A stretch of 64,000 nucleotides of DNA. Origin: Tubulanus polymorphus (Eukaryota; Animalia; Nemertea). Below the pieces are notes generated by a model that had not been told where the DNA came from, did no database searches, and worked only from the letters and a program-made list of their open reading frames with translations. Shown in pieces: positions 10,601 to 63,103 of the stretch; position 1 is the stretch's first letter, and each line of letters starts with the position of its first letter. The translations under genes were made by a program, and so were the position numbers. The stretch spans positions 4,692,778 to 4,756,777 of the forward strand of contig NC_134030.1 in assembly GCF_964204645.1 (NCBI RefSeq), given 5' to 3'.

Positions 10601-11584
10601 TACTGACGTAGTTAGGTGTATCATCGATATTTTGGAAACAGCTATATTTGCGGTGGTCCTTTAAAGAATTACTTATATTTGGCTGGTTCTATCGCTTGTT
10701 TGTGTTCGTTTATTCCATTCAATTATGACTATGTTTCTTCTGTGAAAATTCCTTCGAGAACAAGATCCATGAATGTTTATTTACTTATATAGATTTATAA
10801 AGTTGCTTAAGACCTAGTCCACGAGTGTTGGATTCGATGGGGTTTGCTGACGGTGTAAATCCCTGATTACCTATGACATGTTTGCAATGGTTCTCATGGG
10901 TTTTCAATCTAAGCACAAACCGATTTCCTGGCGACTCTCGAAACAGATCATCGGCAATAATTCCCATCATCTAACTTGATCAAGCGTGCTCCGATTGGGA
11001 TTGGTGGTGTCGCGCTGCTGGTGAGCTATACTTTCATTAGATAATATTGGTCATTGGTCACGGTAAGGCTCTACACATACCGCAATAATTATATGATTGG
11101 ATTTCAACTGTACAATGTGAATCTGATGTGCCATCGATCTATTTTGGAGTGCTGTTTTGGGAAGATACGTACCACAATGAGTGATTATTGAGGATTCATT
11201 GGGCACAAAGCCTTGCTTCGAATTGAACATATGACGTAACATCAAATTTTCAGTAGAACTAAAACTATATACCTATATCCAAAATGTCGCCCCTCACCGT
11301 TGTCTGAAGCATATTACATATATATTATATTTAGGTATGCCGATTTTGCTAGGAATAGCAAGAACAAAATCCTACTCGTTTCACAAATTATACGTGTTCG
11401 CAAATTATATACGTACAATATCATACGAGGAAAATTCAACACAACTGTGAAATTGTTATATGCATATACACCATCGAAGTATCATCATTTTATGATACAT
11501 TTTTCCACGCGTCGCATCATCGCTTTTTCAAGTCACTTCAACGGACCCAATCGACTTCGTGATTCAATACCGCTGAGTTTGAGT

Positions 11585-12616
11585 ATGACTGGAAACGTAA
11601 CTGTCGTCACCACTACGACGACTACTGTTACTACTCCGCAGTATGTTTGTCCATTAAACGGACTCCAAATACGAAAACATAAGCTTCAAATATACTTCAT
11701 TCTTCCCGTATGTATCATGGGAATATGCTTCAATATTTTCAGCTCCTTGGTTTTTAGGAAAATGTCTGATAGCGGGCAGGCAATGCGTCTCCTCATCCTC
11801 GTAGCACTGTCGGATATCATTTATCTTTCAAATACATTTTTAGACGGTCCGTTCCGTCATTTAATATTCAGAGCGATCTTCGGTGACCTCATGTTTTATC
11901 GACCAGATTTTGCGGTTTTTCCGCTGTGGAACTGGATACGAATTGCGTCCTACAAGTCGACAGTGACGATCCGCAATTGGATGGTAGTTCTAACAGCTGT
12001 CGTTAGATGTCTCCACGTGTTATTTCCGTTCTGGTCTCGGCGTTGTATCGATAAGAAACGGATCCATATTTGCACGTCCATTATTATTGTTATTTCGGCA
12101 GCTGTGTACGTGCCTCGTTATTTTGGTGGGAGAATAGGCACTGAAAAATGCCGCGGTGCTCCGCCACACTTTCCCCGTTTCAAGTTATTCAAACGAAGTA
12201 AAACCATTCATTACGTAGGCACTTGGATATATATGTTACTAACTATATCCATCCCAGCAGCGATTATCTTGTTCTCAAACGCAATTCTCTTATGGTCAGT
12301 ATACAGGTCGTTTCAACTACGAAAATCAATATCTACCGAAAAAAACAATGGACGTTCGTCCAGGAAGACTAAAGCGACACAACTAGTTTTAATAGCGACT
12401 TCTGTGTATCTGATTTGTGAATTACCACCTCTCATCACGAGGGTATGTAACTACTTCGTCAAAGTTAATTGGAATCCATTTCTGTTAGAAACTATATTCG
12501 TAGTTATAAATAATCTACCACCGATCGACTCGGCCATTAATTGCGTGATTTATTTACTTGCTAGTAGACAATTTCGGACAATGGCGAAAACGATGTGCTT
12601 TAAAAGTATTTCCTAA
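11585..12616 (+). CDS. Intronless class A (rhodopsin-like) GPCR, FMRFamide-receptor-like/orphan peptide or chemosensory type, copy 1
   Basis: Seven hydrophobic segments with GICFN (TM1), LVALSD (TM2), TAVVRCLHVLFP (DRY equivalent), ICELP (TM6), DSAINCVIY (NPxxY equivalent) and helix-8 QFR. In-frame ATG at 11585 precedes an N-glycosylated Thr-rich N-terminus; the ORF track's upstream TTG extension is not protein-like. Confidence 0.9.
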   Translation: MTGNVTVVTTTTTTVTTPQYVCPLNGLQIRKHKLQIYFILPVCIMGICFNIFSSLVFRKMSDSGQAMRLLILVALSDIIYLSNTFLDGPFRHLIFRAIFGDLMFYRPDFAVFPLWNWIRIASYKSTVTIRNWMVVLTAVVRCLHVLFPFWSRRCIDKKRIHICTSIIIVISAAVYVPRYFGGRIGTEKCRGAPPHFPRFKLFKRSKTIHYVGTWIYMLLTISIPAAIILFSNAILLWSVYRSFQLRKSISTEKNNGRSSRKTKATQLVLIATSVYLICELPPLITRVCNYFVKVNWNPFLLETIFVVINNLPPIDSAINCVIYLLASRQFRTMAKTMCFKSIS

Positions 12617-12814
12617 CTAACAATATAAACCTTTCGATTTGGGGTCATCCTTGAGTAACACGAAGTGTTGCCCTACCTATGTACCTTTCCTTCGTCCTTA
12701 ATCAACTACACTTCGGTTGTAGAATCGACTCTCTGTGTCGAAAGAATAGCATTGGGACAAATTACCACATCTATAGACTGTATTGTCTTTATTGTTTAGC
12801 AGAAAGGGGTATTT

Positions 12815-13025
12815 TTACAGTTTCGTTAGATCCGTTTCATTTGACTGAGTGCAGTACGATATCGACGAACATGAAAACTTGACTTCGTCAAGGTCTACGA
12901 GTTCATCGTTCACTTCATTGTCTAGATGAATCCCGATTACAAGAGGATACACGACAGTTGCGAACAGACTTCCGATCAGTGGTCCGATTAGCGGAATCCA
13001 AAACCAGCAGTTGTAGTTACGAAAA
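12815..13025 (-). pseudogene. Orphan duplicate of the aquaglyceroporin last exon (intact frame; possible alternative terminal exon)
   Basis: Reads FRNYNCWFWIPLIGPLIGSLFATVVY...LTKL*, near-identical to 20081-20288 with an in-frame 3-nt indel. Acceptor ttttcgcag is retained. No upstream aquaporin exons in this copy. Confidence 0.8.
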
Positions 13026-13305
13026 CTGCGAAAAGAAACGCAAAGATCATTTAACAAAGATAATTTCAAATATGCAAGATACAAATTAGTGGGGTGATGA
13101 TGAAGATGACTAAAGATTTTCTTATGGAACAAAAATTAAAATCTAGATGAAATTTTTAAAATATTTTCTATAGAAGATCATACACCAGAATATAATGCAA
13201 TGGCTTGAAAAAATGAAAAAAATAGAAAATGAAAATGGTGAAATAACTAAGAAAGATATAATAAAAAGAATTATTCCGTCAACATGTAACACAAAAGAAA
13301 AGTAA

Positions 13306-13680
13306 ATGTATTTATATTTATCATTTAAAGATTATTATTAGAAACCTTAATTAACAAAAGAAGATGTGGAAAATATAAAAGAAACATTCACAAACATATT
13401 AAAATATAATGTGCATATAAGAATAACAGATTCAATTAATTATGAATTCTTTTTAAATAAGATTGTAAATTTTTCAAACATCGATATTATAATTCCATTT
13501 GATGAATTAACAAACAAAAAGAAACAAAGAGACCGAGATGAAATGTGGTACAATATAGAACTTTATTTAAATGAGAAAAATGAAATGAAAGAACCTAAAG
13601 AAATTATAGAAAAACAATTAAATGAAAATGAAGAAACCACTAGTGATTTCGAGTATGATGATATTGATTTCATGTTTTAA
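13306..13680 (+). pseudogene. Unknown AT-rich gene of the Polinton-like fragment (frameshifted near 5' end)
   Basis: K/E/N/I-rich ORF 13366-13680 with an acidic tail. Its TAA overlaps the convergent PolB stop (ttaa, 13677-13680), a compact virus-like arrangement. Family not recognised. Confidence 0.45.
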
Positions 13681-16600
13681 TCACCATAAGGTAATGTTTT
13701 TATTCCATCACCCAAAATATGTCTTTTATCATCGAATGGATTTAAGCTAGTTTTTTCAACTTCATTAATGTACATCTCGTGATCTTCTGATCTGAAACAA
13801 TTAATTTTATGTTTCATTACAATTTAATTATATAAACATTTTATATTCTCTTGAAATTCTATATGTTTAGCAACCAAATGCTTTGTTATTCCTTTTAACT
13901 TTTTAGCTTCATGATCTTTTGTTCTATAACTATACATTTTACTTCTTATCCCAACAAATTCATGATAATTCATGATAAAATAATTCATGATCTTTTGGAT
14001 AATTGCTTAAGTCAAAATGATGTTTTAATGTTTTAAAAGTCTTTTGTTATATCATTTATTTTGATTTTTAGTATGTACGCATCCGTATTGACCGCTATTA
14101 ATGGAAATCCACAGTTAAGTTTCCCATCTTCAGTTGATAAATCATAAACATTATCTGATGGGTTATATATTTCAAATAAATCTTTAACTTCTTCAGTTAT
14201 TTCTTTTTCTGTATGCCTTAGATTAAAACAATTTGGCTTAGATTTAATCAATCCAATATTCATATCAAATTCTAATGAATTGCATAATATATTTTATCCT
14301 GCTAGAACAACTTTTCCTTTTTGAGCAAAAGATACTGATTTGTGGTTTTTACATCTTTTTGAACCATCTGCTGTGTAGAATCCTATAAAATACCATTTAA
14401 CATAATTATACACACCTGCTGAACCATCTCCCATAAAAAATCCTTTAATAAAATATTATTTTTCTTCTAATGTTTCTGGTTCTATATTATAGATATTATT
14501 AATTATTTCATCAAATGACATATGATTCATTCTTGGATAAAATCTTTTATGTAATAATTCATCTCCAATATTTATATCAGTTGGTTTTATTTCATCACCA
14601 TTTTGTTTAATTAAACTATGATCTTCAGTAACATCTACAAACCCTAATTTAGTTCTAACTCTATAAATCTTTTTATTTGTTTTATGTCTAATTATATTCT
14701 TTAATTTTTTCCATCCATTTCTTGTCCAAACATCCCTTAATCCATTTATTTGTATTAATTCTTTTTCACGATATGAAATATAAAGTTCATTTTGATTAGG
14801 CATTATTTCTGAAATTCTTCTTATTAATATTTGATTATCATATTTTAATAATATTAGAGTATCAGCTGTAACAGAATCAAAATATAATATTTCAATATGC
14901 TTTTCCCCAAAAAGTGGTTGTAAAACATTATAATAAAAATCATACATTAATAATTTTGATACTTCTAAAACAGTTGAACCTATGAGTATAGGTTTATTTA
15001 ATTTCATTGACGTTCTTTTTAATTTTACTGCTGTTAAATAATCTTCAAATCTTTTATTTCCTAAGTGGCTATGACTTGATTGTAAATGTCTCAATCGTTC
15101 AGAATTATTTACTAATTCAATTTCATTTCTATTTCTAATATTTTCACATGTTTTTCCATAAAAACTATTATGCATTAATTTTAAAAAACCTTTTTCAAAG
15201 TCTGTTTTAGATATTGTTCTCTGTTGAGTATTGAAATCTATATATTTTTCTAACCACTTCGATTGATTAAATTCAATATATCTATGTACTTTCTTTAATT
15301 TCATTCCTTGTTTTAGATAAAATTATAACATTCTTTAATGAACAATATAATTGTATTGATTATTTTGTGTTGATATTAATTTTTCAGTAAAAACATGATC
15401 TTTCGTTTGTATTTTTTTCTGATATTCACTTAGATAACTATCATCTACGGCTAAATGTTCTGGGCAATAAGGTAAGTTTCTTGTTTTAAACTTTATGTTA
15501 CCTGGATATTCTAAATCAACTACAAAGAAATAACCAATTGGAGCATCATCTTCTAAACTCATAATTGCGCTTTCCCAATTAGTTTTATCATCATTTTCAA
15601 CTTCTGTTAGTATAAAATTTTTATATGGTTGAGGTTGCATCATCGCCCAGCCATAAAAATTAGTTGCGTCAATATATAATAATTTATATTCATCATTTGC
15701 TTTAAAATACCTATCTCCCATAACACCACTAATTCCACCTATAATTAATTTTTCAAATAATAAAACTATGTCTGGTTCTTATAATACATCTAATTCTACA
15801 TTTGTATATTTTAAACCACATTGCCAAGTTGAACCGGGACTAGAGTAGCAATAACAAGGATCAATTTAAAATGATTTATATTAACTTCTCTAACTTTTTC
15901 AAATATGTCAGCCTATATCATAACATCTGATTTCAAGTATAAATCTACTAATTCACCATGATTTTTTACCTTAAAATGATTCCAAGTATTTAATGTTCTA
16001 TTAAAAACTTTCACATACTCATTTTTTAATTGATCATCAAATTGTTCTTTTAATAATTCTGTTACATCAAAATCATCGTGTGTTTTATAAAATGAATAAG
16101 GAATTGCACCTTTATATCTCAATAATTTAAAATCTTGTTAATTTGGATAATAATGTCGAGTAATAACAAAATCATTATCAACTAAACTTTTTCCTAAATT
16201 ATCTAATGAACTTGCTAGAAATCTATAAGAATCTAAGAATGTAATGCAACCAAATTGAAATGAAATACAATTTTCAGATGTTTTAGCTAATAGTTTAAAA
16301 TCATATTTTCTTACATTTTAATCATTTATAGCATTATATTCTTCTATTTCTTGATTAATTGCACCTAATTTTCCTGATAATTGTTTTATAAACAAGTGGG
16401 TATCATACCCTGATAAATTATGAAATAATATTGGTACGAAATCAACATTTTTAGCTTGTAAATTACAATCTTCATGAGCATCTCCACGATATTTTGAATT
16501 TAAATGATCATGACCTGTAACTTTTTTATCAAATGAATAAAAACGTCTTTCACAGTAACAACAATGAGTTGCATAATTAAAATCAATTTCATCTCCTTTT

Positions 16601-18397
16601 GTCATAACTATTCTTCTATTTTTGTTTAATAATTGTGCAAAATCACTTTCTAATTCAATTATTTTATTACAAAAATCATTTACTACATCTTCACCTCCTA
16701 AAGAAATATATTGACTTTCATATAATTCAGGATAATTTGATTTTATATAAATTCCATAAGCAGCAGCTCTTTGATGAACTTTATTAATTGTATTTATGAT
16801 TGGTGGGTCTTGAATAATGTCTTCATTTAATTCATTTCCTTTGTCCATTGATTTTAAAAATTGCTTTTTGTGGTATATTTCTTTTTTGATCAGTTAATAT
16901 TTTATTCAACGATTCAAAATCCCTACAAATTAGAAATGGCACTATATTTTTAAATTTATTATGCGTAAATCTCAATTCATAATCTTTTTCTGTTGGCATT
17001 ATAAATTTGCAAAAATCTTTATTATCACATAATTCTTTATGTTTTAATAATGCATTCTCAGTCAAAAATTTTGATAAACATTTTCTACATAGACAAATTT
17101 TACGATGGTGATCACTTTCTGTTCTAAAAAATAAATCTATTTGTTTTAACCACATAAAATGTTCATTTTCATCTTTCATCTTTATAACAAATCTATGACA
17201 TTTTCATCATCATAATATTCTGTTAAATATAAAGCTTCTAATGTATAATCTTTAATATTTTCACCTTTTGTCTCTGGTTATTGCATTAATTCGACAACAT
17301 TTATTTTTAAATTATTAACTTTTTCTATTTTAGGTATCATCTTTATAGTAACTGGATATTGGTCAATTTTATATAATGTTTCATATTTCCGGTAATCTGT
17401 TATTCTAAAACTATGCGTTATATCTTCTGTTGGGTATAAACAACTAATAATTGACCATAGAAAACATTTATTATCTTCATTTTGAACATTTATTACTGCT
17501 TTTGTTGTAAATGGTAATTTAATATAAGATGATGCTTTAATATCCTTTTCTGTTGTAAAGTTTGAATCATTTTTAAACATTTTATGACTTTTTGATGTTT
17601 TATCTCTTTTTGTATTATAAATATTTAAATCTAGAAATATAATTTCATCCAATGTTAAACCAGAACCCTCAAATATCTTTCCTCAATATGACGTTTGAAT
17701 TCATTAATTATTTTTTCTAATTTCTCTTTTATATGTGTTTCTGAAATTATTTCTTCAGAATATGTTTGAATATTATAATCCATTTTTTCTTCTGACGTTA
17801 TAAAACTTACTTTTCCAGAAATACTAATTTTTGGATAATCAACATCTGTAACAAAGTCAATTATTTTTTCCATTATTTCAATATATTTGCTATAATCTTC
17901 TCTTGTTGTACCTTTAAAAAATCCAAATAATATAGCTGCAGGACCAATTTTACTACGAAATGTTTCTAAAATTTCAATTGTATCTTTTATTTCTAGGGAA
18001 TCGATACAATTTCTAACATATTCCATATAAGGTTTATTTGAAATAGATTTAGTTTTTGAAGCTGGTTTTTTTACTTGTTGAGGTTTATCATCAAAATATT
18101 CTGTTCCTAAAATATTTTTATCTAAATTTTGTTGGTGTTTTTGTGATTCGAGATGTCTTTTATAATTCTTTTTTTTGCTATAAATTCATTACAAACATTA
18201 CATTTAATTTCATCTTCATTTAATCGTTCTTTTTTTCATTGGAATTTTCTGGAGTTTCAAAATCTATAACATTTTTTTTAATGATTTGCAATTTTTTCAT
18301 GTTGAGATTTATGTGATTAATCCATATATTTTTTACAATATGCACAATTATATTGATTTTTATTAACATCATTGTTTTCTGTCTGTCTCCCATTCAT
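13677..18397 (-). pseudogene. polB: Protein-primed family B DNA polymerase (pPolB, Polinton/adintovirus type), broken by several stops and frameshifts, intein-containing
   Basis: Motifs in order across ORF fragments: N-terminal C2H2-like fingers; SSYIKLP..VINVQNEDNKCFLWS; CRKC..H..LC; ExoI DFESL; HDH..KYRGDAHEDCNL; ExoII FHNLSGYD; FLDSYRFLASSLDKL; KGAIPY; ExoIII YLKSDV; GGISG; motif A DATNFYGWAM; motif B KLMHNSFYGK; motif C YFD|TDA; EFVGIRSKMY; KKLKGI; C-terminal FDDKRHILGDGIKTLPYGD*. Confidence 0.93.
14087..14875 (-). mobile_element. Intein (Hint domain) with degenerate LAGLIDADG homing endonuclease, inserted in PolB motif C
   Basis: 263 codons in one frame with two internal TAA (14456-58, 14294-96). 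Block A SVTADTLILL follows YFD; block B VDVTEDHSL; endonuclease motifs YFIKGFFMGDGS and YFIGFYTADGS; block F NVYDLSTEDG; ends LIAVN followed by extein TDAYILKI. Confidence 0.92.
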
Positions 18398-18474
18398 TAG
18401 GAAAAATTACTTATGGTGATGAGTGATTGTCGCTCTCTCGCTCTCTGGTATGAAACCCACATTCACCAATTACT

Positions 18475-20350
18475 AATGTGAATCTGGTGTGCCATCGATC
18501 TATTTTGGAGTGCTGTTTTGGGAAGATACGTACCACAACGAGTGATTATTGAGGACTCATTGGGCACAAGGCCTTGCTTGGAATTGAACATATGACGTAA
18601 CATCATATTTTCAGTAGAACTAAATCTATATACCTTTATCAAAAATGTCGCCCATCACCGTTGTCTGAAGCATATTACATATATATTATATTTGGGTATG
18701 CTGATTTTGCTAGGAATAGCAAGAACGAAATCCTACTCGTTTCACAAATTATACGTATTCGCAAATTATATACGTACAATATCATACGAGGAAAATTCAA
18801 CACAACTGTGAAATTGTTATATGCATACACCATCGAACATTATGGAATGGACTGGAAACATAACTGTCGTCACCACTACGACGACTACTGTTACTACTCC
18901 GCAGTATGTTTGTCCATTTCACGGACTCCAAATACGGAAACATAAGGTTCAAATATACTTCATTCTTCCCGTATGTATAATAGGAATATGCTTCAATATT
19001 TTCAGCTCCTTGGTTTTTAGGAAAATGTCTGATAGCGGGCAGGCAATGCGTCTCCTCATCCTCGTAGCACTGTCGGATATCATTTATCTTTCAAATACAT
19101 TTTTAGACGGTCCGTTCCGTCATTTAGTATTCAGAGCAATCTACGGTGACCTCATGTTTCATCGACCAGATTTTGCGGTTTTTCCGCTGTGGAACTGGAT
19201 ACGAATTGCGTCCTACAAGTCGACAGTGACGATCCGCAATTGGATGGTAGTTCTAACGGCTGTCGTTAGATGTCTCCACGTGTTATTTCCGTTCTGGTCT
19301 CGGCGTTGTATCGATAAGAAACGGATCCATATTTGCACGTCCATTATTATTGTTATTTCGGCAGCTGTGTACGTGCCTCGTTATTTCGGCGGGAGAATAG
19401 GCACTGAAAAATGCCGCGGCGCTCCGCCAAACTTTCCTCGTTTCAAGGTATTCAAACGAAGTAAAACCATTGATTACGTAGGCACTTGGATATATATGTT
19501 ACTAACTATATCCATCCCAGCAGCGATTATCTTGTTCTCAAACGCGATTCTCTTATGGTCAGTATACAGGTCGTTTAAACTACGAAAATCAATGTCTACC
19601 GAAAAAAACAATGGAGGTTCGCCCAGGAAGACTAAAGCGACACAATTGGTTTTAATAGCGACTTCTGTGTATCTGATTTGTGAATTACCACCTCTCATCA
19701 CGAGGATATGTAACTACTTCGTAAAAGTTGATTGGAATCCATTACTGCTACAAACTATATTCGTAGTTATAAATAATCTACCACCGATCGACTCGGCCAT
19801 TAATTGCGTGATTTATTTACTTGCTAGTAGACAATTTCGGACAACGGCGAAAACGATGTGCTTTAAAAGTATTTCCTAACTAACAATATAAACCTTTCGC
19901 TTTGGGGTCATCCTTGAATAACAACAAAGTGTTGCCCTACCTATGTACCGTTCCTTCGTCCTTAATTTACTACACTTCGGTTGTAAAATCGACACTCTGT
20001 GTCGAAAGAATAGCGTTGTAACAAATATTACAACATCTATAGTCTGTTTTATCTTTATTGTTAAGCAGAAAAAGGTATTTTTAGAGTTTCGTTAGATCCG
20101 TTTCATTTGACTCTGTGCAATACGAAAGCGACGAACATGAAAACTTCACTTCGTCGATGTCTACGAGTTCATCGTTCACTTCATTGTCTAGATGAATCCC
20201 GATTACAAGAGGATACACGACAGTTGCGAGCAGACCTCCGATCAGTGGTCCGATTAGCGGAATCCAAAACCAGTTGTAGTTACGAAAACTGTGAAAAGAA
20301 ACGCAAATATCATTTAACAAAGATAATTCAAATATGCGAGATACAAATTA
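18475..20350. repeat. Segmental direct duplication, copy 2
   Basis: Co-linear with 11114-13088. Its right side runs on into the intact aquaglyceroporin gene. Confidence 0.95.
18842..19879 (+). CDS. Intronless class A GPCR, copy 2 (paralogue of 11585-12616)
   Basis: Same 7TM motifs, about 20 amino-acid differences from copy 1 by eye. Start at ATG 18842 (MEWTGNIT) or 18821. Confidence 0.9.
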   Translation: MEWTGNITVVTTTTTTVTTPQYVCPFHGLQIRKHKVQIYFILPVCIIGICFNIFSSLVFRKMSDSGQAMRLLILVALSDIIYLSNTFLDGPFRHLVFRAIYGDLMFHRPDFAVFPLWNWIRIASYKSTVTIRNWMVVLTAVVRCLHVLFPFWSRRCIDKKRIHICTSIIIVISAAVYVPRYFGGRIGTEKCRGAPPNFPRFKVFKRSKTIDYVGTWIYMLLTISIPAAIILFSNAILLWSVYRSFKLRKSMSTEKNNGGSPRKTKATQLVLIATSVYLICELPPLITRICNYFVKVDWNPLLLQTIFVVINNLPPIDSAINCVIYLLASRQFRTTAKTMCFKSIS

Positions 20351-23997: not shown

Positions 23998-33986
<9,989 letters not shown>

Positions 33987-36148: not shown

Positions 36149-38096
36149 ATGCGATGCAGTCAAGATATGTCAGGAGAAAGTGAATTATTTTGTCCTGAAT
36201 CGGTGGAGTGGCCAGGACTGCGTGTTCCGTGCGGATCTATAGTAGTGGCGATAGACATAGGTAAGTGATAAAAACGTCAACACTTAGAAAAATTTGCTCA
36301 AAATATACCCGAGGTTCGTCTTAAATCGACAAAAATGCAAGCGAAGATTTAGGGGAACTTGGCGGCGAGATACGACGATATTGATACTAGCCATCGTATT
36401 GAAAGAATATTTTCCAGGGAAAATCAACAATTTTTTTCCTCTAAATCTTAGGATGTAGTCTCATAAAGCTATGCCATTTAGTGGACGATTTGTGTACTGG
36501 TAAAAACGCAGCGGCGGACCTGCAAGAACCGTGTATACATTGTGAAAAGGTATCGTACATATTTCATTTACGAATAGATTCTTGAATATCAACATATGGT
36601 ATCAAAGAATTCATTCAATTTTTAGCAAGAAATCGGGTCAAACGTTCGAATGAATTTCATCAGTTTGAAAAACTCCGACATCGAAAAATGCATGCAGTAT
36701 ATAAAACAGTTGATGGAAACGACAAGAAAAAAACCAGTGATAATCGGGCTCGGAGTTGGCACGTTAAAACACAGAGAACGAATCAAATCTGAACTACGAG
36801 TCGAGTAAGAAAACCTCGGAATAACCTCGCAATAATCTATTGCGTTACGAATAATTATACATGCTAATTCATATTCATTAGGCTTCAGGAAAGCGATGAA
36901 TTCAAATGCTTCGCGAAAGCATTTCACAGCATCTTGGAAAATCAACAGTTGGCGGCATCGTTTGTGCTGCCTTCCGTTGATCCTGTAATCGACCACAGAC
37001 AGTTCGGTCTGGCTCAACCAACTCCGGATAACTCTCAAACGAACGACGATCAAGCGGATGAAATATTTCCTGCCATATTATGCGTATTGGGCTCCACGGC
37101 TAACTTTCTCAAAGTATGTCCTATACGTGTATACGTTGAAAAAAAATAACCGTCAATTTCCTTGTTATTCCAGTCCCCCGCAAAATTACATTTTTCATCC
37201 AGATTGACGCCGATGGAAGTTACACATATCTACACAACGTGAAACGGTGCGGTGTATTTTTCTATTCACTAGGCAAAATACTAACTGGTTGTGAGGTTAG
37301 TTAATTCAAAATTCGTGACGTGTCACATTGCAAAGTATGACGTCATTGCTCATAATTTTCAGACCTATGAAGAGTTGATGTCGCTGACGCGTGAAGGACA
37401 CGCCCCTAATTTAACAATCTGCTTGGACGAAATACTGACGGAAAAATACGGCGATGTTGATGGTGTTAGATTGAGCAAATCGCTTCAAAGTCTCGATTTC
37501 CGGGCAGAAACGTTGCCTTTCGGTCGGCTGATAAAAGATGGTCAGTTTCAACAGGTTATTCCCATAAACAAGAAACTCGATGACGCTGCTATGCACTATA
37601 ATCGCGAAAGCTTGTACTTCAAATAAATCTAGTTAACTTTCAAAGGTCTACTTAAAAAGAAACTTTTCTCGCAAAAGGCCGCTTTATTGATGGCGCATGG
37701 GTCTCCTTCGTCTGAAATTTATCATATTGTAGATTCATTGAAACCAACTAGAGAAGATATGGCCAGGGCTTTACTTCATACAGTTGCTGACGGTGTTATG
37801 GACGTAGCTGTGTTGCTCGCGAAGGAAACACGACTACGCCGGGTGTACTTCGCCGGATCTTTCCTTCGCGAAAATTTTCCCGCACGAGATTACCTTTCGC
37901 AAATGCCATACGCATCTATGGTGAGACCGTACACAGATCGAAACTTTCGCAAATGAGTTTAATTGTGGACTTTCTTTTTCACTAAATGGGTTTTCTTACA
38001 TTTCAGAATCGTTGGATGGTTAATGCCCGGTTTTTACGCCATGATGGTTATATTGGGGTGATGGGAGCCGTTTTGAATTGCGTAGGAAGTCAATGA
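36149..38096 (+). CDS. Divergent type II (fumble-family) pantothenate kinase-like protein, ~8 exons
   Basis: Spliced translation AIDIG|CSLIKL, MNFISL, GLGVGTLKH, SDEFKCF, FPAILCVLGSTANFLK, LGKILTGCE|TYEELM, PFGRL, REDMARALL, RVYFAGSFLR, ARFLRHDGYIGVMGAVL follows the eukaryotic PanK motif order. Confidence 0.82.
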
Positions 38097-42990: not shown

Positions 42991-45381
42991 CTAGTAGGTT
43001 GAAGTCGAAGAAACATTACTATTTTTACTATGAGGAAAGAATTTCGTGTTTATGAAACCCATATCTGCTTGCCATCGATAGTTATCGCTATTAGTATTGA
43101 ATATCTTATTCAGGACATAGAACGGACGGAATCCAATTTCTAGGGTTTTTTTCATATCTGCAGCGTACTGCCCCATGCTGAATCGTTTTTCTCCGAATAC
43201 GTGGTATTCGACTAGGTACTGTTTTACGATGTTTATCGTACCGTCTGACAATATATTATGCAGGACGTCGAATTCTGTGCCTTCGATATCGATTTTAAAG
43301 AAGTCGATAATCCTCTGAAAATACAACAAATCAACGAATAAATCGAATAAGGAATTCTTGAAATACGATTTTATGATTTACGTTTTTGAAATGAAGGATT
43401 CGAACCTGAATGATCATATATGACATAATTCCGATATATCGGAAAGAGAATTGCAACGAACATCTTCGTTCTTTTGAACTTACGTTCTCCCGTTTTACCA
43501 TTTTCAGAATGGATCTTACAGTTCGAACCTTCCATACTTGATCTGATTCGACGTATTCATCCTTTCTCGGAATAAAACTATCAGTGTCTGATCCACCAAC
43601 TCCCAGATCGTAAAACCAGACTTTTTTCGAATGTCTATGATCCGGTTTATTCATGCTATGATTAGGACGAAAAAACAAAATATAAAGAACATGTAATTTG
43701 CGTGTGAACGCGCTCTCTAATTAGGCACGGTCCAAATTTGGCCAGAGCCTGATCGGTGTCAATTTAGCCTGGGCCAAATCTTCTCCGTGTGATCGCGGCT
43801 ATAGAAATGTCTTAATCGCACATTAATTTTTGGTACGCGTAAAATCAATTTACGGGTATTGCTTATTACGGGTTTTACTACCTCGGATCAAACGCGTAGA
43901 CTTCACATCCGAATTTTTCCATTTGATCATCAAACTGCCATAAATTAGCGATCCTGCGTCAGATAGAAATAAGAAACAAAATATGATATATAAAATATAT
44001 GCGCCGGGTAACCCCGGAAGCCTTCTTTGTGCTATAGGGATCGGGACACACGTGTTTCGAGTTCTGGAAACAGTGCGGAATAGTTGAATGAAATATCAAG
44101 TGCCCAACACACACGAGGCCCGGAACGCTCGGAAACATGTTTCCGTCTGCTGTTTCCGTGTTTCAATGCGTCGTTTAAGTTGGGCTTAATCAAGCTATTA
44201 CTACATTACGTACCCGAATGAAAGAGCCAAACAACCAGGTTTAGGTGCAAACGGTTCATCGTGACAAACGTACCAGCTTCCTTCTCCACCCTCGCCATAA
44301 ATTTTACGATTTTTACACGTATACATGGGGCCTTTATTCATGTACCTAGTGTTAGAAAACAACGCAATCCATCAATGTAATAACACTAATTGTTATAATT
44401 GCTCACTCTTCTGAACCCTCTAGCTTACTCATATAAACTCTCCTGAAATTATCAAAAATCATCAACTTTCATTTCCTTCCCCTTTATTTCTTCATTTCCC
44501 TATCGTTTTTTTCCCTGGGTGCTTGCGACAGCGGCCTAAAGGCTTTGCTTGGCCCACACTGAAAGCTACTGTTCTCTCTCTCTTTTTATAATTGTGCTTT
44601 GTTTAAAAAAATTGTAAATTTTATTTTCTCTCAACCTGTGTACATAGCCTGTCATGCTTTCTGTGAAATAAATTTGAACTTGAACTTGAACTTGAACGCA
44701 TTGTTAGAACTATACGATATACACGGAAGCATAGATACATTGAGTTTAGAGGCTAACAGAAATATTAATCATCCGCTCTATAAAACACACACACCCTTTG
44801 ATTAAAGCCTCGCCTTCCCACCATTTCAGCGCAGATACACTTCCTGAAGAATAAAGCGAAAGAAATATTTCGAGATGTTTTCGCGGGGGTGAACCTAGAT
44901 ATTTTGAATTGGACAACACCTCCTAGGCCTTGTACATACATTACAGTACACGAAGAGCGAACACAGATAATGGGGTTTGGGCCCTCCCCAAGTGAGTATG
45001 TATACACATAATCGTATGAAGCTTTTATTCGATAAAAAATAGCGATTAAATGCGCGATAAAGAGTAATAGAAATTGAGGAAAAAATTCTTTTCATTGATT
45101 TATAAAAAAATGGCAAATGAATAAAACTTTGAATGTAACGCATATTTCCAGAATAGATAAAATGTATGTGCACAATCGATCTGCCGTTATTTACTCATCT
45201 GTCATTATCGTTATTATTTTAAACAGCTTTAGCAAATGTAATACGTGCATTCTTTCGACAAAATGTGCATTATCCTGGTGATACAAAATGTTACCTTACC
45301 GGGTTGTTGAGCTTCTGTAGACTTAGCACCAGCTAGATTGATAATGGCATACCGTAACGTCGATTCTTTACTTAGCAATTG
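42991..45381 (-). CDS. METTL24-like (Methyltransf_22/FkbM-type) methyltransferase; 5' exon(s) not located
   Basis: Exons give CKNRKIYG..GEGSWYVC..CLALSFG|IANLWQFDDQMEKFGCEVYAFDP|SM..VWFYDLGVG..VRTVRSI|IIDFFKIDIEGTEFDVL..VKQYLVEYH. Assignment of the upstream exons (~44795-44843, 45300-45381) is less certain. Confidence 0.83.
44500..44697 (+). mobile_element. Probable 3' end of a non-LTR retrotransposon (CR1/L2-like tail)
   Basis: AATAAA followed by (TTGAAC)x4. No ORF remnant identified and the left limit is approximate. Confidence 0.4.
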
Positions 45382-45593: not shown

Positions 45594-46288
45594 GCCGGGC
45601 GTAGGTTGGCCTTGCGACGCGACGCGATCGTCGCGTTGCGTCATAAGTGGCCGCGCAAGTCGGTTGCGATGCGGTTTTCAGCGACTGTGTGCGACTAGTT
45701 GCTGCACGGTCGCGTCGCGTCGCAGAAAGTAGAACATGTGCGACTCATTGCGACTGGCGTCGCTGGCAGTCGCAACCCCGCAAGGTAGCGTAGGTCGGTG
45801 AGTCGTTGCGACGCGAACGTCGCTGGCGGTCGCAGTGAGTCGCAAGCCGTCGCAAGGCCGACCTACGCCCGCCTTAAGAGGAGTGGGTAAACCTATAGAA
45901 AAGTTCGTATTTCGCATCCAAATGGCTAGAGTTATACTTGATCAAAAGCTGCCACTTGGATGCGAAATAACTACTTATCTATAGGTTTACCCGCTCGCTT
46001 AAGGCGGGCTTAGGTCGGCCTTGCGACGGCTTGCAACTCACTGCGACCGCCAGCGACGATCGCGTCGCAACGACCAACCGACCTACGCTACTGCCAGCGA
46101 CACCAGTCGCAATGAGTCGCACATATTCTACTTTCTGCGACGCGACGCGACGCGACCGTCACAACCGACCTGCGTGCTGTTGCGACTGGCAGCAAGTAGT
46201 CGCACACAGTTGCTGACAACCGCATCGCAACCGACTTGCGCGGCCACTTGTGACGCAACGCGACGATCGCGTCGCGTCGCAAGGCCGA
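45594..46288. repeat. ~700-bp imperfect palindrome: two inverted MITE copies around a palindromic spacer
   Basis: 45594-45873 has its own ~26-bp TIRs (GCCGGGCGTAGGTTGGCCTTGCGACG / CGTCGCAAGGCCGACCTACGCCCGCC). 46003-46288 is its reverse complement. The spacer arms 45880-45927 and 45951-45996 also pair. Confidence 0.88.
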
Positions 46289-54900: not shown

Positions 54901-57900
54901 ATCCCCTTGGAAATGCCCCTGAACTAGATGAGACAAAAATCTGTATTTTGTGTGTATTTTTGAGAAACTGTATTTGTTTCTTACCCATCATGCGTCTCTG
55001 TTGACGCTGTTTCCAACCACACATAACCATGAATATGACGAGTAGTAACATCATTACTCCGAGTACAATACCGAGTACCATATACAACAGAGTGCTACTC
55101 GACTGAGTACTCAATTTCCTCTCGACGAAATCATCATCAGTATCCTTGGTCTGTTCAAAAAGAAAATCTTAGTCTCAGAATCTCATTAACTAGCTGAAAA
55201 ACTAACCATCGAAAAAAAGACATTTTTGAGAAATGTACCTTATTATTTTTTACCTTATTCACGATATCAAAAATGTTGATATCTTTAGAAATGTGGCCGT
55301 GACCGTGGCGATTGATTCCAAATGTGTTACTGTGATGATTGTGCGCGTGGTCATGGTGCGATGTGTGGTCATGTTTCGAGTCAACTACTGGGAATAAGCC
55401 TGTTTTTGGTTTGCCATCGACAGCTGAAAAACGCAAACAATCCTAACCCATTAACGCCTCATTCAGGGTTCAATGTCTGATAAGCCGCTATTCTGATAGA
55501 GCATTCAAAAAACACATGGTCCCTACTAAGAAGACCTACTTTTATGACCTTCCCAAATATCTACGTATATATATATAAGTATGAATGTAAATACCTACAG
55601 TATGTTCAATATCATATTGATTGGAAACTTTTCATATTTGAAAAAAGACATCCCCGAAGTAGGGATGCCCTCTTAAAAAAGAAATTAATAATGCAGCTAA
55701 TACCTCCAACATCTTAACTATCATTTTAGAATCAAAACCTATCTGCTCACTTACGTAAAGTACGTTTAACAACTGTATTGCTGAAGTCGCTAGCTCCCGC
55801 CGAGTTGAAACACTTCATTTTGATCTGATATTCCGTATCCGGAAGCAACTGAGACAATACGTGTCGCACGTGTTGACCTCCGAATATTGTACGGCGAATA
55901 TAATCCTCGCCTGAGTCAAACGGGCGATAAAATATCACAAATCCTTCGATAGCCATCGTGTCGATCATTAGATGCTAAAAACATTACAAAAAGCAAGAAT
56001 TAATGTTGAGAAATGGGTGCTTCATTGAAGTGAACATCACACTACAGGGAGATTTCAACATTTTAGTGGTGACTGGTAGATAAAGATGATTTTCAAGAAA
56101 GATTGCTGAAGAAAGGACCCTTTGGGCAAGCAATTGATGACTCAGAACTATTATTCTAGATGGGTACAAAAAATTTTCAATATTTCTGAATATTCTGAAA
56201 ATCTATCAAATTCCCAAAGGAAATTTTGAAATTCCTAAGTTTTTCCAATTTCCTAGTACTGTGGAAAACATCGAGAGAAAGAAATTTGAGTTAATGATTT
56301 CTTTTAGTTCTAACACAAACCTTCCATCGCAGTGCTATTGCTCCTCCTGGTAATGGATTGACCTCAACTATCACTGGCCCAGCTACCGGACGTTTGGGCC
56401 GATGTGCTGGTACTGCTTCCAACATAAACTTGTCAGATTTCGCTCCATCTTTGTTGTCGTTGTTGCTATAAACAGCCACAATGCGGAATCTATACGTATC
56501 ACCTAAACACAGAAAATAATTGTTGAGTACAACACATACAAGATGAAGTCATATCTCTTTTTCTTGAACATTAGAGTTCAATTCAACTAGGAATGTCAAT
56601 GAAATCTCCTGTACCTGGTTTTAACCCTTTCACTTCGTATTTGCGGTGACTATCAGCTATGTCCTCGTCAATTGTGTGCCAAGTCGCTCGTTTTTTCTTC
56701 TTGCGATTTTTATGGATCGTGCGGTATTGAACGCGGAAGAATGCGATCGGCAGACCGTCATTCAGCGGTACGTCCCACTGGAGCATTACCGACGTGTCTG
56801 ATAGTTTACTGACTTCCGGGCGAGATGGTGGAACCATTTTCACTATGAAATAGAATATAAATTATTATGAAGACATATATTCGATATCCTGGACACAGGT
56901 TCAGGTTTTGAGTTGAGATTGTAAACTAGAGTTAGGCAAGAAAACAAGTAGTATAAGTAGGTCAACTGATCTTATCAGAAACCATGAGCTTTCACTATCA
57001 ATGTGTGGTAGCTTCATCAGATGATCAGGTAAATTTCGAATAATATCAACATGACCTACATGTACCGGTACTAATTGTTTTCTCATTAAAATTGATAACC
57101 AGGTTAACATGGCTCATCTTCAAATCTACTCCAGAGGTAGCTAAATGATAATAAACTAATTCTAACCCAACAGCTAATTCACATCTGTGGAACCAGGTTA
57201 CACTGAACTGTACAAAGCATCATATAAACAACAATAATTCGTATTAAGTCTATACACAGTTTCACAATTTTTGATTCACAGTTTTCATTATGAACTGACC
57301 TGGTACAATCGACGATGGATTCTCTACGTCTGCTGCGGTCGGTTCTTCATCGACGTGTATGATCGACGGTCGTCCTCGATTCCGATTTTTCTTGTTCTTT
57401 CGTTTTTTGTTCTTTTTCTTCTTGTTCCGTCGGCGGCCGGCGCCACCTCGGTTACCGCCGCCGGCGTTCTCGCCGAATTTCGCCATCGACGACGACGTAG
57501 GGTCAGAGAGGTCGTAGTCTCCGTCGAGCGATCCCCAATCGTCATCATCGATATCATCGACCTCGTCACCTCGCACAACCTCGTTATTCAACGATGCATC
57601 CGTTTCATCATTATAATCTTCCTCCCCCCAATGATCGGGTAAAATTCTATCATCTTCTTTAACTCTATTATTCACAGACTCATTATTTCCATCATTGAAC
57701 GTTTCTCCATTATCATTCCCTTTATCATTACCGTACTCATAATCAGCATCTTCGTAATCATCCACATTTTTCTCTTTATTATCCTCATAATTATCAGGAA
57801 CCACTGGGTCTGGCTCCTCGACTCCTTCGGGTCGACCTCGTTCGTCGAAATACTCCTTTACAAATTTATTGTCGTCTGACTCTGATTGCTCCTTAGTAGC

Positions 57901-60900
57901 CGGTGCTTTGTAATCGGCTTCGAAGTCAAAATTAGTCGAGGCGTTCTTTTCCGCCACTGGTAACAAACTCTCTTCTATCAATTCTTTGACATCATCAACA
58001 TTTTCATCAGCACCAGAAGGACCAGCAGCCTCATCTACTGTTTCATTCTTATCACTGGCAGCATGATTTATAGACTCAGTAGTTGTTGCAACATCCGTGA
58101 CCTCCTTATTCATATCTGTGACGTGGTGTCTACCAGTCACTTCATCCACTGAAACAATAATAATAATCATAAACATTATAAATGGTAAATTTCCTTCAAA
58201 CTCTGTAAACTGATTTATATTCATCTGCATCTGATATTTTTAGGGTACCTTTCGGAGGCTGAACATCTTCTACTAGTTCATTGTCCTCTTTGTCATTTGT
58301 TTCACTTCCATCATCAACATCTTCCACTTTATCCTCACTTTCAAAATCTTCTTTATCTTCAGCTTCTACCACTGGAGGTTGGGCAGTTACAACATCCTGT
58401 TTTTCATTGTAAGCCTTAACATTTTCAACCTCCTCAGGGATGATGGAATCCTCATTTTCACTGACTGGTAGTGGTGGCGATGATGTTGTTGTAGATGGTT
58501 TTAATGTAGTTGTAGTGGATATAGTGGTAGTAGTCGATGTTGTTGGAGGTTCTGGAGTTGTTGTCGTTGTAACGGGCAGCTTTTCGTCGATGTCCTGGAA
58601 CTGATCTTTAGTCGGTGGAATCTGCGACGGTCCCGTGTTAACGACACCAGCTGGAAATATATACCGAAATGCAAATCTAGAGATGAAACATGAATGGTGA
58701 GGTATCTGAGTTACATAAATACAATATCAGCATCCAGTTGCTCAAAAGTTTGTTAATGAATGGATAAATACCATAGTAGCAATGTTGTATCGAGTACCTG
58801 CTGATGTGTGTAGTAGTATTATAAGTGTGATTGAAGCTCTAAAGGTTTGTATGATTGGCTGTAACAAATCTTGCTAGCTACTGTGATGGTTAGCTCGCTA
58901 TTTAAATCGAAATTAAGGTTGGGGATTGGGGCTTCCATGTAGTAAGAACTTAAGTTTTTTCAGCTATAGTCGGTATAGAGTTAATAATTGGAAAATATCT
59001 GGGTTAGTGAGCAACTTACGTAGTACAATGAGATAAGCAGATGCCGTGGTGAAGCCCATTCTATTGGATGCCAGACAGATGTACTCGCCAGCATCCGTCA
59101 ACTGCCCATTGAATATTTGTAAACTGCCGGTTGGCGATACGTCATGACGTTCATTCAACGCGTAATCGAGCGGAGTACCGTCCTTCAACCAGCTGACCTT
59201 CGATGCAGCATCAGCGATACACAACAGCGTAATTGTTTGACCTTGAACGGAGGTCAAGTTCGACGGCCCCATCGTGATGATCGGCTTTGACACAGCTGAA
59301 AATATCGGATTTCAACATTACATGAAAATAAGAGCAGTATTAGAATAATAGTTATAGTTCAATATCTATCATTTGAAAATTACCCGATTCTGGCTCCAAA
59401 AAACGCCGTGAAAATGAGTCATCAGGAGCTATTGACTGCGGTTTAGTCGTCGGATCTTTATAGCCCCACTTTTTCACTTTCAGTCGAGCAATCGCGAACG
59501 CGTGGCCGATTTTACTCTCAGCAAAACACTGATACAATCCAGCCTCGTCCATGGTCACATCTCTGATCGTCATAGTGGTCGCTAAATGAATGGAAAAAAT
59601 AATCCATGTAATGAATAAAAATTTCAATCTCGATCTAGATATTACGATCGACAGGCTTGTGGTGGGTAAGAGTTGTTTAGTTTAGTTTCATGCAAAATTT
59701 ACCAAATGAACTGGATCCCATAGTATAAGCAATGAGCTTGTTTTAATTGGACTCAGAAGTCAAGGTCTAAAGATTTGCTCAGAATTGAAGTTTAGAGCAG
59801 TTTAGGGTTGATGAGGAGAGTTCCTTGGGAAACTTGGTCAAACGAACTGGATCCCAGAACAAAAAAAAAGAACAACACTGGGAAAACTGCTGGATCAGAA
59901 TTTTAAGCTCCATACATAAGAATAACATGGGTGGTGAGATATCTGAAGAACAACAATGAAAACTCAAATAAACGACATTAATAAATGGCTGCACTAGTGA
60001 TGAAAAGTTAGCAGCAACAGTGATTATTTTCAGGACAAGGTCATATATAAGACACCTGCCTTTTAGAAGATACAATGTATTCCATACTGAAGGCACATCT
60101 ATAGAACACATTAATGGAATTAACACAAAATATGTAAATTGTGATCAAATCAGCTAAAAAGTAAGTGATTCGATACGCTAGGATTGTAAATGAAAGGGGA
60201 ACACATCAACAGTTTACAGCGATATATTCCTTACCATTTATACCAAAATCCATATTCCATGCTGATTTAAGTATGCATAAATATAAAATCATCTTTATAC
60301 AGAATACATGCACCTAAACCAAACATTTTCATTTCAAATTATTTCGCCATCTATTCAATCTAGTTCCAAATTATCATGATTTATTCCATATAAGTTCAAA
60401 ATGCTCTACTGTTTGAATTAAGAAGTTTGTTGTCATCATGCGGGGGCTACAGTAGTAAATTCTTACCGTCAATAGAGATGAGACTGTCGCGATAAAGAGG
60501 TTTCGCGTTATGGAACCAAGAAATACGTGCTCCCGTACGAGCCTCCGGTTCGCATCTAAACGTCACTGAATCGCCTTGCGAAACGACCTGACTCCTCGGC
60601 GCACGTTTTATACTGGGAGGTTCTGTAAAGGAGGGAATAAAGAATGAGGATAAATGCTTATACATGTATACATTAACAATGCTTCCAGTCTGTGAGTATC
60701 AGAATCAGGGGCATTCAAAAAAATATTCCAAGAAATAAAAATTTCTTTTCAGAGACAGAAAACAGTTGCAGAGACGCTGATCAATTTATAACATCATCAC
60801 AAAGATGGCATAATCAGGAGCATCAGAACTCGATGCTTAACTTGTACGCTTACCTAACACCTCTAATATAGTATGGCGCGATGTTGGCGCCCCCTGGAGG

Positions 60901-62996: not shown

Positions 62997-63103
62997 CTGA
63001 AATATAGAAAAAATATACTCAATGATTGTCAAATTCGTTTCTTTAATTTCTTTATTTGCTATGGACTGGATACAGCAAGCACCTTGCTTTTATCAATAAT
63101 AAT

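Follow-up and report, generated by a model that had tools for sequence, protein, structure and literature searches.

Inteins of the pol-c kind interrupt archaeal PolI and the PolB of giant viruses; in Mimivirus the insertion site reads YGD|TDS (PMC549080, in the part available), and the intein described here sits at the same position of motif C. Iridoviridae and other large DNA viruses also carry inteins in their DNA polymerases (PMC5784728, available sections). Nuclear scaffolds that carry viral-like DNA polymerases with an intein are known from Klebsormidium, Tetrabaena and a labyrinthulid, according to the accessible text of PMC10710043; the accessible main text of that paper contains no mention of Polinton, Maverick, animal or metazoa. 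The available parts of PMC5784728 and PMC8529194 state that inteins are absent from metazoan genomes.

In the Polintons' protein-primed DNA polymerases (pPolBs), insertions of HNH and VSR nucleases have been described (PMC10748475 and PMC11161782, as far as accessible), and a single sentence in the accessible text of PMC11071308/PMC11161782 suggests that the nuclease inserts of Polinton polymerases stem from intein invasions. The searched text and supplements of PMC10748475 and PMC11161782 describe no Hint domain or splice junction for these inserts. The word "intein" does not occur in the available main text and supplement of PMC10748475, nor in the available main text and the searched part of the supplement of PMC8502044. 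A literature search that took in the accessible portions of PMC12220804, PMC3671162 and PMC5718144, and that lay outside subscription journals, RepBase, InBase and bioRxiv supplements, returned no description of a Hint intein in the pPolB of a Polinton or adintovirus.

Here we analyze a stretch of 64,000 nucleotides (the window) from the ribbon worm Tubulanus polymorphus (contig NC_134030.1). The account that we favor, and which we regard as quite probable, is that it holds a decayed LAGLIDADG intein in motif C of a ribbon-worm Polinton pPolB, that the kin of this intein are predicted to splice and likely home, and that the lineage probably came from giant viruses.

The intein and the polymerase that it interrupts

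An AT-rich stretch from about 13089 to 18447 holds a broken polymerase and one convergent broken ORF. The features of this region and its flanks, in positions of the window, are:

11114 to 13088, plus strand: first copy (A) of a direct repeat of the host; contains an ORF for a Srw-type GPCR at 11240-12616 (Pfam); 95% identical to copy B
13089 to 13680, plus strand: convergent broken AT-rich ORF, 5' end cut; no informative family match
13683 to 14086, minus strand: C-extein, starting with the +1 Thr (TDA), with frameshifts and stops (tblastn)
14087 to 14875, minus strand: intein of class-1 type, Ser1 to Asn263, with two in-frame stops (profiles, fold and translation)
14087 to 14149, minus strand: C-terminal splicing region with block F VYD, the GFPLI signature, the penultimate Val and Asn263 (translation and relatives)
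14363 to 14395, minus strand: second LAGLIDADG motif, block E, WYFIGFYTADG (Pfam and relatives)
14395 to 14396, minus strand: approximate point of a 91-residue endonuclease deletion relative to intact P0003 (alignment)
14423 to 14452, minus strand: first LAGLIDADG motif, block C, FIKGFFMGDG (aligned relatives; 71% DNA likeness to the second motif)
14540 to 14875, lower end approximate, minus strand: N-terminal part of the splicing (Hint) region, containing Ser1 (block A) and TEDH (block B, 14629-14618) (TIGR01445 and invariant columns)
14876 to 18358, minus strand: N-extein of a Polinton-type protein-primed PolB, interrupted by frameshifts and stops (tblastn, queries P0003 and P0126)
18433 to 18447, minus strand: AG-rich motif upstream of the polymerase, a possible single element end; no partner repeat found
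18475 to 20350, plus strand: second copy (B) of the host's direct repeat; contains an ORF for a Srw-type GPCR at 18812-19879 (Pfam); 95% identical to copy A

On the minus strand positions 14875 to 14087 make up exactly 263 codons, which read SVTADTL...CGFPLIAVN when the frame is translated through its two in-frame stops at codons 140 and 194. The insert is preceded by ...HIEILYFD and followed by TDAYILKIK, and it splits the YFD and the TD of polymerase motif C. The sequence-only reading of this DNA had described a 263-codon intein with Ser1, a block-B TxxH, a block-F VYD, a terminal Asn and a +1 Thr; translation and alignment recovered every one of these (TEDH at residues 83-86, VYD at 243-245, Asn263), and S1, T83, H86, D245 and N263 are invariant columns in an alignment of 54 sequences. 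That reading had also taken the frame to be continuous apart from the two stops. This holds inside the intein but fails for the surrounding polymerase, where the parts aligned by tblastn contain some seven frame changes as well as 14 stops, a few of them in alignment ends that overrun.

With X placed at its two stops, the window intein scores 33.5 bits against the TIGR01445 (intein_Nterm) profile over residues 2-88; the intein call is thus more than chance, since the cut-off of this profile is 24.5. The Pfam families Intein_splicing (E 1.9e-6) and LAGLIDADG_3 (E 0.0019) are also matched, both under their gathering scores, so that the profile check proposed earlier came out positive with only TIGR01445 above its cut-off. 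An AlphaFold model built from the 54-row alignment has a mean pLDDT of 89. Its best fold matches in the PDB are endonuclease-bearing inteins (7qsu at E 1.5e-8), and among the matches listed all those with E<=0.001 are inteins; the best named viral fold matches are giant-virus DNA polymerases. The intein call is therefore backed by a Hint profile as well as by structure.

One might suppose that the insert is a non-splicing Hint domain of the Hedgehog or BIL-like kind, or a nuclease domesticated by the host. The penultimate residue, which among 116 related inteins is His in 34 and Lys in 59, is Val in the window copy, and the sub-threshold Pfam scores point the same way; a penultimate His is, however, common but not obligatory in class-1 inteins. 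Both splice junctions are complete, the insert splits a catalytic motif, intact relatives keep all motifs and the top fold matches are true inteins, while the window copy itself is broken. The probability of this explanation is in our view practically negligible. These results confirm that the segment is a genuine intein, which belongs to the known pol-c kind and occupies a host protein of a new class.

The endonuclease part of the intein has been damaged. Compared with three intact relatives, the nearest of which has an intein of 354 aa, about 91 residues are absent between the two LAGLIDADG motifs; the motifs themselves are present but the full nuclease domain between them is missing, and to judge from this alignment the endonuclease of the window copy is degenerate. 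The earlier proposal of a nested system, with an endonuclease in an intein in a virus in a host chromosome, therefore stands for the intein, the Polinton-type extein and the animal host, but has to be qualified for the endonuclease, which is internally deleted. The window copy is dead because its polymerase is broken, its intein contains two stops and 91 residues of its endonuclease are gone. A natural mini-intein was considered as the main reading and turned down, since the nearest relatives are full length, though the deletion may be family-wide.

The polymerase itself was identified from its exteins. By inspection the N-extein contains a vOTU-like CFLW motif, and it includes an EndoVII-like insert and motifs A and B. 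It is 39-68% identical to four pPolB relatives (56-68% to P0003 and P0126) and gives no alignment at E<0.01 to three PF00136-type exteins or to P0004. The alignment proposed in the sequence-only reading thus places the extein with the Polinton-type pPolBs and not with the giant-virus PolBs, and a grouping with RNA-primed NCLDV or cellular PolBs was not seen with any of the three PF00136-type exteins. The relatives match Pfam PF02945 and, weakly (50-67 bits), PF03175; the latter is passed by P0003, P0005, P0286 and P0296, while P0126 falls short, and a sequence search of the PDB with P0126 gave no pPolB match. From these Pfam scores and the published description, the window polymerase appears to belong to the divergent "Beta" PolB class of PMC8502044 (available text). 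The labels Alpha and Beta as used here denote Pfam scores and mutual divergence, set against the accessible description in PMC8502044 and not against a reference placement.

The best match to the exteins, P0126 (69% identical), reads YFD|TDSYILKIK and is the empty form at exactly the window site. When a 581-residue extein query was used, 148 of the 150 best cluster representatives gave no intein match; the two positive ones are P0132, a 167-aa pPolB fragment with the same junction, and a giant-virus-type PolB. The insertion is likewise absent at the exact site from 82 of the 97 rows of the extein tree described below. The site, YxD|TDS of PolB motif C, is as in the available part of PMC549080, and the nearest inteins outside the pPolBs are at YGD|TDS, which agrees with the pol-c-equivalent site that had been claimed from the sequence. 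The idea that the TDA of the window is a decayed TDS was ruled out, as TDA is found in five of the 82 empty relatives and in P0430.

The element in its animal host

The window element can be described as a 5.3-kb Polinton-type fragment, judged by its gene content, and not as a complete element. A terminal inverted repeat pair with a target-site duplication was not found between 10500 and 21000. Ends with AG repeats are known from Polintons. Pfam detected no integrase, packaging ATPase, protease or capsid among the 42 window ORFs scanned (59 ORFs have at least 100 aa, and the fragment is truncated). The label Polinton hence rests on the polymerase, because the fragment is without a second terminal repeat, an integrase or a capsid gene.

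The element is surrounded in the window by GPCR, Ig, WSC and lectin exons. The GPCR at 34274-35365 matches a Tubulanus polymorphus NCBI protein, encoded on a 23-Mb contig, with 100% identity across 80% of the query, in support of the animal host proposed earlier. Carriage by an animal is shown for the window copy only and not for its intact relatives.

Raw reads give further information on the copy number. In run X5 the depth is about 5-14 in the flanks and 127-270 over the element (127 and 239 for its two intein bins); these values refer to 12% of the run at a likeness threshold of 90%, with both directions summed by hand. The depth on the element, intein included, is about 25-fold above that of the flanks, and 8042 of 10086 X5 reads are only 90-95% alike to the window. 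The same excess is seen in runs X1 and X2 of a second study, from which the window itself may derive, while X6 shows nothing. Because of the excess in depth and the prevalence of reads that are only 90-95% alike, the element represents a diverse family with roughly 25 copies per host genome copy, or a free virus. In most of this family the intein is present, at least with its N-terminal half. That the depth is lower over the C-terminal half (127 versus about 240) could be an effect of the 90% likeness threshold.

The reads also show that one of the two intein stops is private to the window copy. A joint of five reads skips nearly the whole intein, and the resulting junction seems shorter, by two codons, than its natural empty counterpart; it is either an empty allele or an imprecise loss. 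Another read joint, which goes back 60 at the two endonuclease motifs, has single-copy depth and was not counted as proof of a longer allele.

Contamination, or free viral DNA that was mis-assembled into an animal scaffold, is a highly improbable explanation of the locus, even though the element lies in an error-prone place between two host repeats of 95% identity and a free virus could give the high read depth. In addition no read or contig spanning the junction of element and host was found among the 16 pieces listed (there were 2534 others). The stops and frameshifts throughout the element are, however, what an old insertion would show and a replicating virus would not, and three runs, taken from two studies with the same species label, give high depth for element-related sequence. 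The call of an intein in a pPolB would survive even a mis-assembly, because intact intein-bearing pPolBs exist independently.

Intact relatives, mobility and origin

An intein search among longer proteins gave 156 matches. Among the 120 listed, pPolBs rank first, with a full intein (333-354 aa) in that same position. Five of them are long uninterrupted proteins of 1504-1693 aa that combine pPolB and intein (P0003, P0004, P0005, P0008 and P0009). A profile search among shorter proteins produced 352 matches; of the 117 new ones listed, 79 have a pPolB intein as their closest kin, and a piece of pPolB extein is detectable in 40 of the 79. Scanning viral contigs with a single sequence yielded one weak match. 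Many intein-bearing relatives are on ENA contigs of hundreds of kilobases. By tblastn a pPolB was absent from all 161 intein loci of the metagenome and viral-contig relatives (80 of at least 251 and 80 of at least 345 confirmed ones). The search for intein-plus and intein-minus relatives that had been suggested from the sequence was thus productive, with intact pPolB+intein proteins on one side and the empty P0126 and P0296 on the other. The fact that intact and empty alleles exist elsewhere makes the finding wider than a single fossil.

All eight full-length pPolB inteins examined keep Ser1, TEDH, VYD and the terminal Asn, and all eight keep both LAGLIDADG motifs with their acidic residue. 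Self-splicing is accordingly predicted for the inteins of the intact relatives. The splicing chemistry of class-1 inteins is established. An intact element would make a polymerase precursor in which motif C is split; an acyl shift at Ser1, helped by the Thr and His of block B, would be followed by transfer to the +1 Thr, helped by the Asp of block F, and the terminal Asn would then cyclise so that YxD and TD are rejoined. The polymerase would need splicing in order to work, because YxD-TD otherwise stays split. Splicing would also free the endonuclease. With its two motifs it could cut the empty site of co-resident or co-infecting elements, and repair would copy the intein in, together with a few flanking codons. 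The site may at the same time shield the intein, because an imprecise loss would ruin the active site.

Plus and minus alleles occur among close relatives. P0293, with the intein, and the empty P0296 are 99.5% identical over 574 residues and have identical flanks. In the P0005 cluster (136 members) the 15 members listed comprise seven with the intein, six without it and two that do not cover the site; the 13 that cover it are on contigs of 95 kb to 1 Mb. The identity of P0005 to its six empty sisters is 0.98-0.99 from -60 to -12, drops to 0.65 and 0.64 in the two 12-residue stretches that border the site, and is 0.91-0.96 beyond +30. Compared with an intein-bearing sister subfamily, P0005 is 0.70 identical before the site and 0.92 in the 12 residues after it. 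This pattern would fit either co-conversion during homing or the survival of cleavage-resistant empty sites; both readings need an active endonuclease.

The distribution of the intein was followed on a tree of N-exteins, which comprises the 97 of 173 candidates that have a locatable site and 200 upstream residues; 15 of them contain the intein. The intein state changes six times on this tree. In a subset of 39 rows, picked after the 97-row tree had been viewed, there are 6-7 changes, and the AU test rejects a single intein clade (p 4e-5). These counts do not separate gain from loss. Within the Beta-like class three intein lineages (A, B and C) match three extein lineages. The pPolB P0004 matches PF03175 strongly and, by inspection, has a VSR-like motif; its extein can hardly be aligned with other pPolB exteins (best E 0.003) but its intein is 44-49% identical to theirs. 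From these identities P0004 appears to be the clearest jump between polymerase classes.

Such a distribution could also come from one ancient entry, vertical descent and many precise losses, with homing having ceased. The parallel intein and extein lineages of the Beta-like class are in line with this scenario, as is the slightly greater variability of the intein (97.9%, versus 99.0-99.7% for the N-extein) among seven copies of the P0005 cluster, and the change counts are blind to the difference. Nevertheless we consider it unlikely: the same intein is found in the barely alignable, Alpha-like P0004, P0005 has a donor-like flank, and both endonuclease motifs persist in all eight full-length inteins although the lineages are only about 45-50% identical. 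In the reading that we prefer, the mobile one, the intein would have entered a subclade of the divergent, Beta-like pPolBs once, long ago, and would then have gone through cycles of gain and loss among close relatives and at least one jump to the Alpha-like, VSR-bearing class.

The source of the intein was examined in two phylogenies. In a quick tree of 116 inteins (118 were cut out and two mis-cut rows dropped) nine pPolB inteins make up one side of a branch with an SH-aLRT support of 81. A careful tree of 55 hand-picked rows, without archaeal pol-c inteins and rooted on topoisomerase inteins of the same family, unites 12 pPolB inteins with three inteins of phage-type PolB (phrog_262) with a support of 100/99. 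This group is the sister of 15 PolB pol-c inteins (95/92) within a larger pol-c group (97/97), so that the pPolB inteins nest among the pol-c inteins of PF00136 PolBs; as a clade of their own they reach 59/68. Four of the sister polymerases are on IMG/VR contigs: P0016 (L086), P0018 (L083) and P0030 (L091) on giant-virus contigs labeled GVMAG, and P0027 (L085) on an unlabeled viral contig. The GFPLI signature at the C-terminus is common to the window intein and the giant-virus PolB inteins.

From this tree the simplest reading would be that the intein entered the Polinton polymerases from giant viruses. The donor is not fixed, because the three long-branch phage-type inteins fall with the pPolB inteins. 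A mobile intein with a phage-type or an unsampled donor, or a transfer from Polintons to giant viruses, could explain this grouping, and the root of the tree rests on an outgroup from the same intein family. However, the phage-type intein (one representative) is only 29-35% identical to the pPolB inteins, compared with 40-44% for the giant-virus inteins, and the phage-type branch is long (1.08); furthermore, it is the giant-virus PolB inteins that share the GFPLI signature, and the inteins of giant-virus type show more diversity and lie around the pPolB group. We therefore judge these alternative donors to be very unlikely and retain the giant viruses as the probable source. Direct homing between distant polymerases was judged implausible in the available part of PMC549080; for this reason the intein probably crossed between the classes in an infrequent, illegitimate event at the D|TD motif that they share, after which ordinary homing may have taken over.

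Comparison with described systems

A more far-reaching scenario can be drawn from these data. Active selfish inteins that splice themselves may reside in animal chromosomes; derived from giant viruses, probably in co-infections, they would still home among the integrated copies of both polymerase classes, drive escape changes of the active-site motif and have given rise to stand-alone endonuclease genes. Polintons in animal cells would then depend on protein splicing for their replication. We advance this scenario tentatively, and on balance with more doubt than confidence.

The results mean that inteins have reached an animal genome through a virus-like element and in many copies, and not in a cellular gene. 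They turn the published guess of an intein invasion of Polinton polymerases (PMC11161782, accessible text) into an observed case with splice junctions. An intein that is common to polymerases without detectable sequence similarity can serve to mark that giant viruses and Polintons have been in physical contact, and such contact bears on the question whether Polintons replicate as parasites of large viruses. The near-identical plus and minus alleles offer a testable homing cycle in integrated elements.

The nuclear scaffolds described in the accessible text of PMC10710043 are like the present locus in that a virus-derived polymerase intein was endogenised in a eukaryotic nucleus; their hosts are algae and a protist, whereas the window case is metazoan and multicopy. 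Iridoviridae include animal viruses. The viruses treated in the available sections of PMC5784728 are also eukaryotic viruses with polymerase inteins, but they are large and non-integrating and their PolB is RNA-primed. The HNH and VSR inserts resemble the window insert as nuclease domains inside Polinton polymerases; the window insert differs in being a complete intein in the catalytic motif. Polintons/Mavericks, adintoviruses and the elements with a Beta PolB (PMC8502044, available text) share with the window an OTU-bearing divergent PolB with a weak PF03175 match, a multicopy state and integration in animals, although the window has only the 5.3-kb fragment of such an element. With the pol-c inteins, finally, the window intein has in common the Ser, Asn and +1 Thr junctions and the combination of Hint domain and two-motif LAGLIDADG endonuclease, and it is 40-44% identical to those of giant-virus PolBs. 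It differs from them in its host protein, a protein-primed PolB with no BLAST-detectable similarity to their PolBs, and in its carrier, which is a Polinton-type element in an animal genome.

Host sequence around the element fragment

The AT-rich Polinton-type fragment that holds the intein-split polymerase is flanked on both sides by a 2-kb host duplication. Its two copies, which are 95% identical and comprise two Srw-type GPCR genes, lie to either side of the fragment. In copy B, about 100 bases are missing close to where the ORF region starts. There may be a connection between this duplication and the truncated state of the element.

Host and repeat features of the window
11114-13088, host repeat copy A, one side of the element fragment, Srw-type GPCR gene
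18475-20350, host repeat copy B, other side of the element fragment, Srw-type GPCR gene
31030-32159, host exons, WSC and C-type lectin domains
37633-37956, host exon, pantothenate kinase (Fumble)
42991-43377, host exon, FkbM methyltransferase
45608-46286, imperfect inverted repeat, 680-base, 79% identity, MITE- or foldback-like
57262-63018, minus strand, host exons, multi-Ig protein with acidic tail

Empty alleles and stand-alone forms of the intein

The surroundings of motif C are changed in the empty alleles from the family of P0005, an intact intein-bearing protein-primed polymerase (pPolB); they read YFD-TDA, YTD-CDS or YGD-TDA (P0282, P0284, P0285, P0286, P0288, P0289). It is possible that these altered surroundings represent an escape from the endonuclease. 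Separately, short contigs of 784-1213 bases deposited as Bartonella carry Polinton-type pPolB fragments (P0128, P0517-P0519), which are probably animal-host DNA within bacterial assemblies.

The pPolB-type intein also exists on its own: a multicopy family (P0355, P0486, P0487, P0489, P0494, P0381, P0423, P0360, P0374) encodes it in stand-alone ORFs roughly 365 aa long and forms clusters of 55, 14 and 6 members on contigs of up to 825 kb. These ORFs share an 11-residue leader that starts at its own Met, and they end just 4-7 residues past the terminal Asn. The stand-alone form looks like a free-standing endonuclease gene that was spun off with extein stubs.

Related inteins in other host proteins

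Type II topoisomerases contain the same intein family, inserted at DQD|TDG (P0041, P0055, P0059, P0061, P0067, P0089, P0114). Because this site resembles the D|TD junction of the polymerase, the comparison suggests that the family has jumped between unrelated genes at a common short motif. A related intein occurs at D|TDG in phage-type family B polymerases of phrog_262 (P0081, P0094, P0102); in the tree these three inteins sit on a long branch and group with the pPolB inteins.
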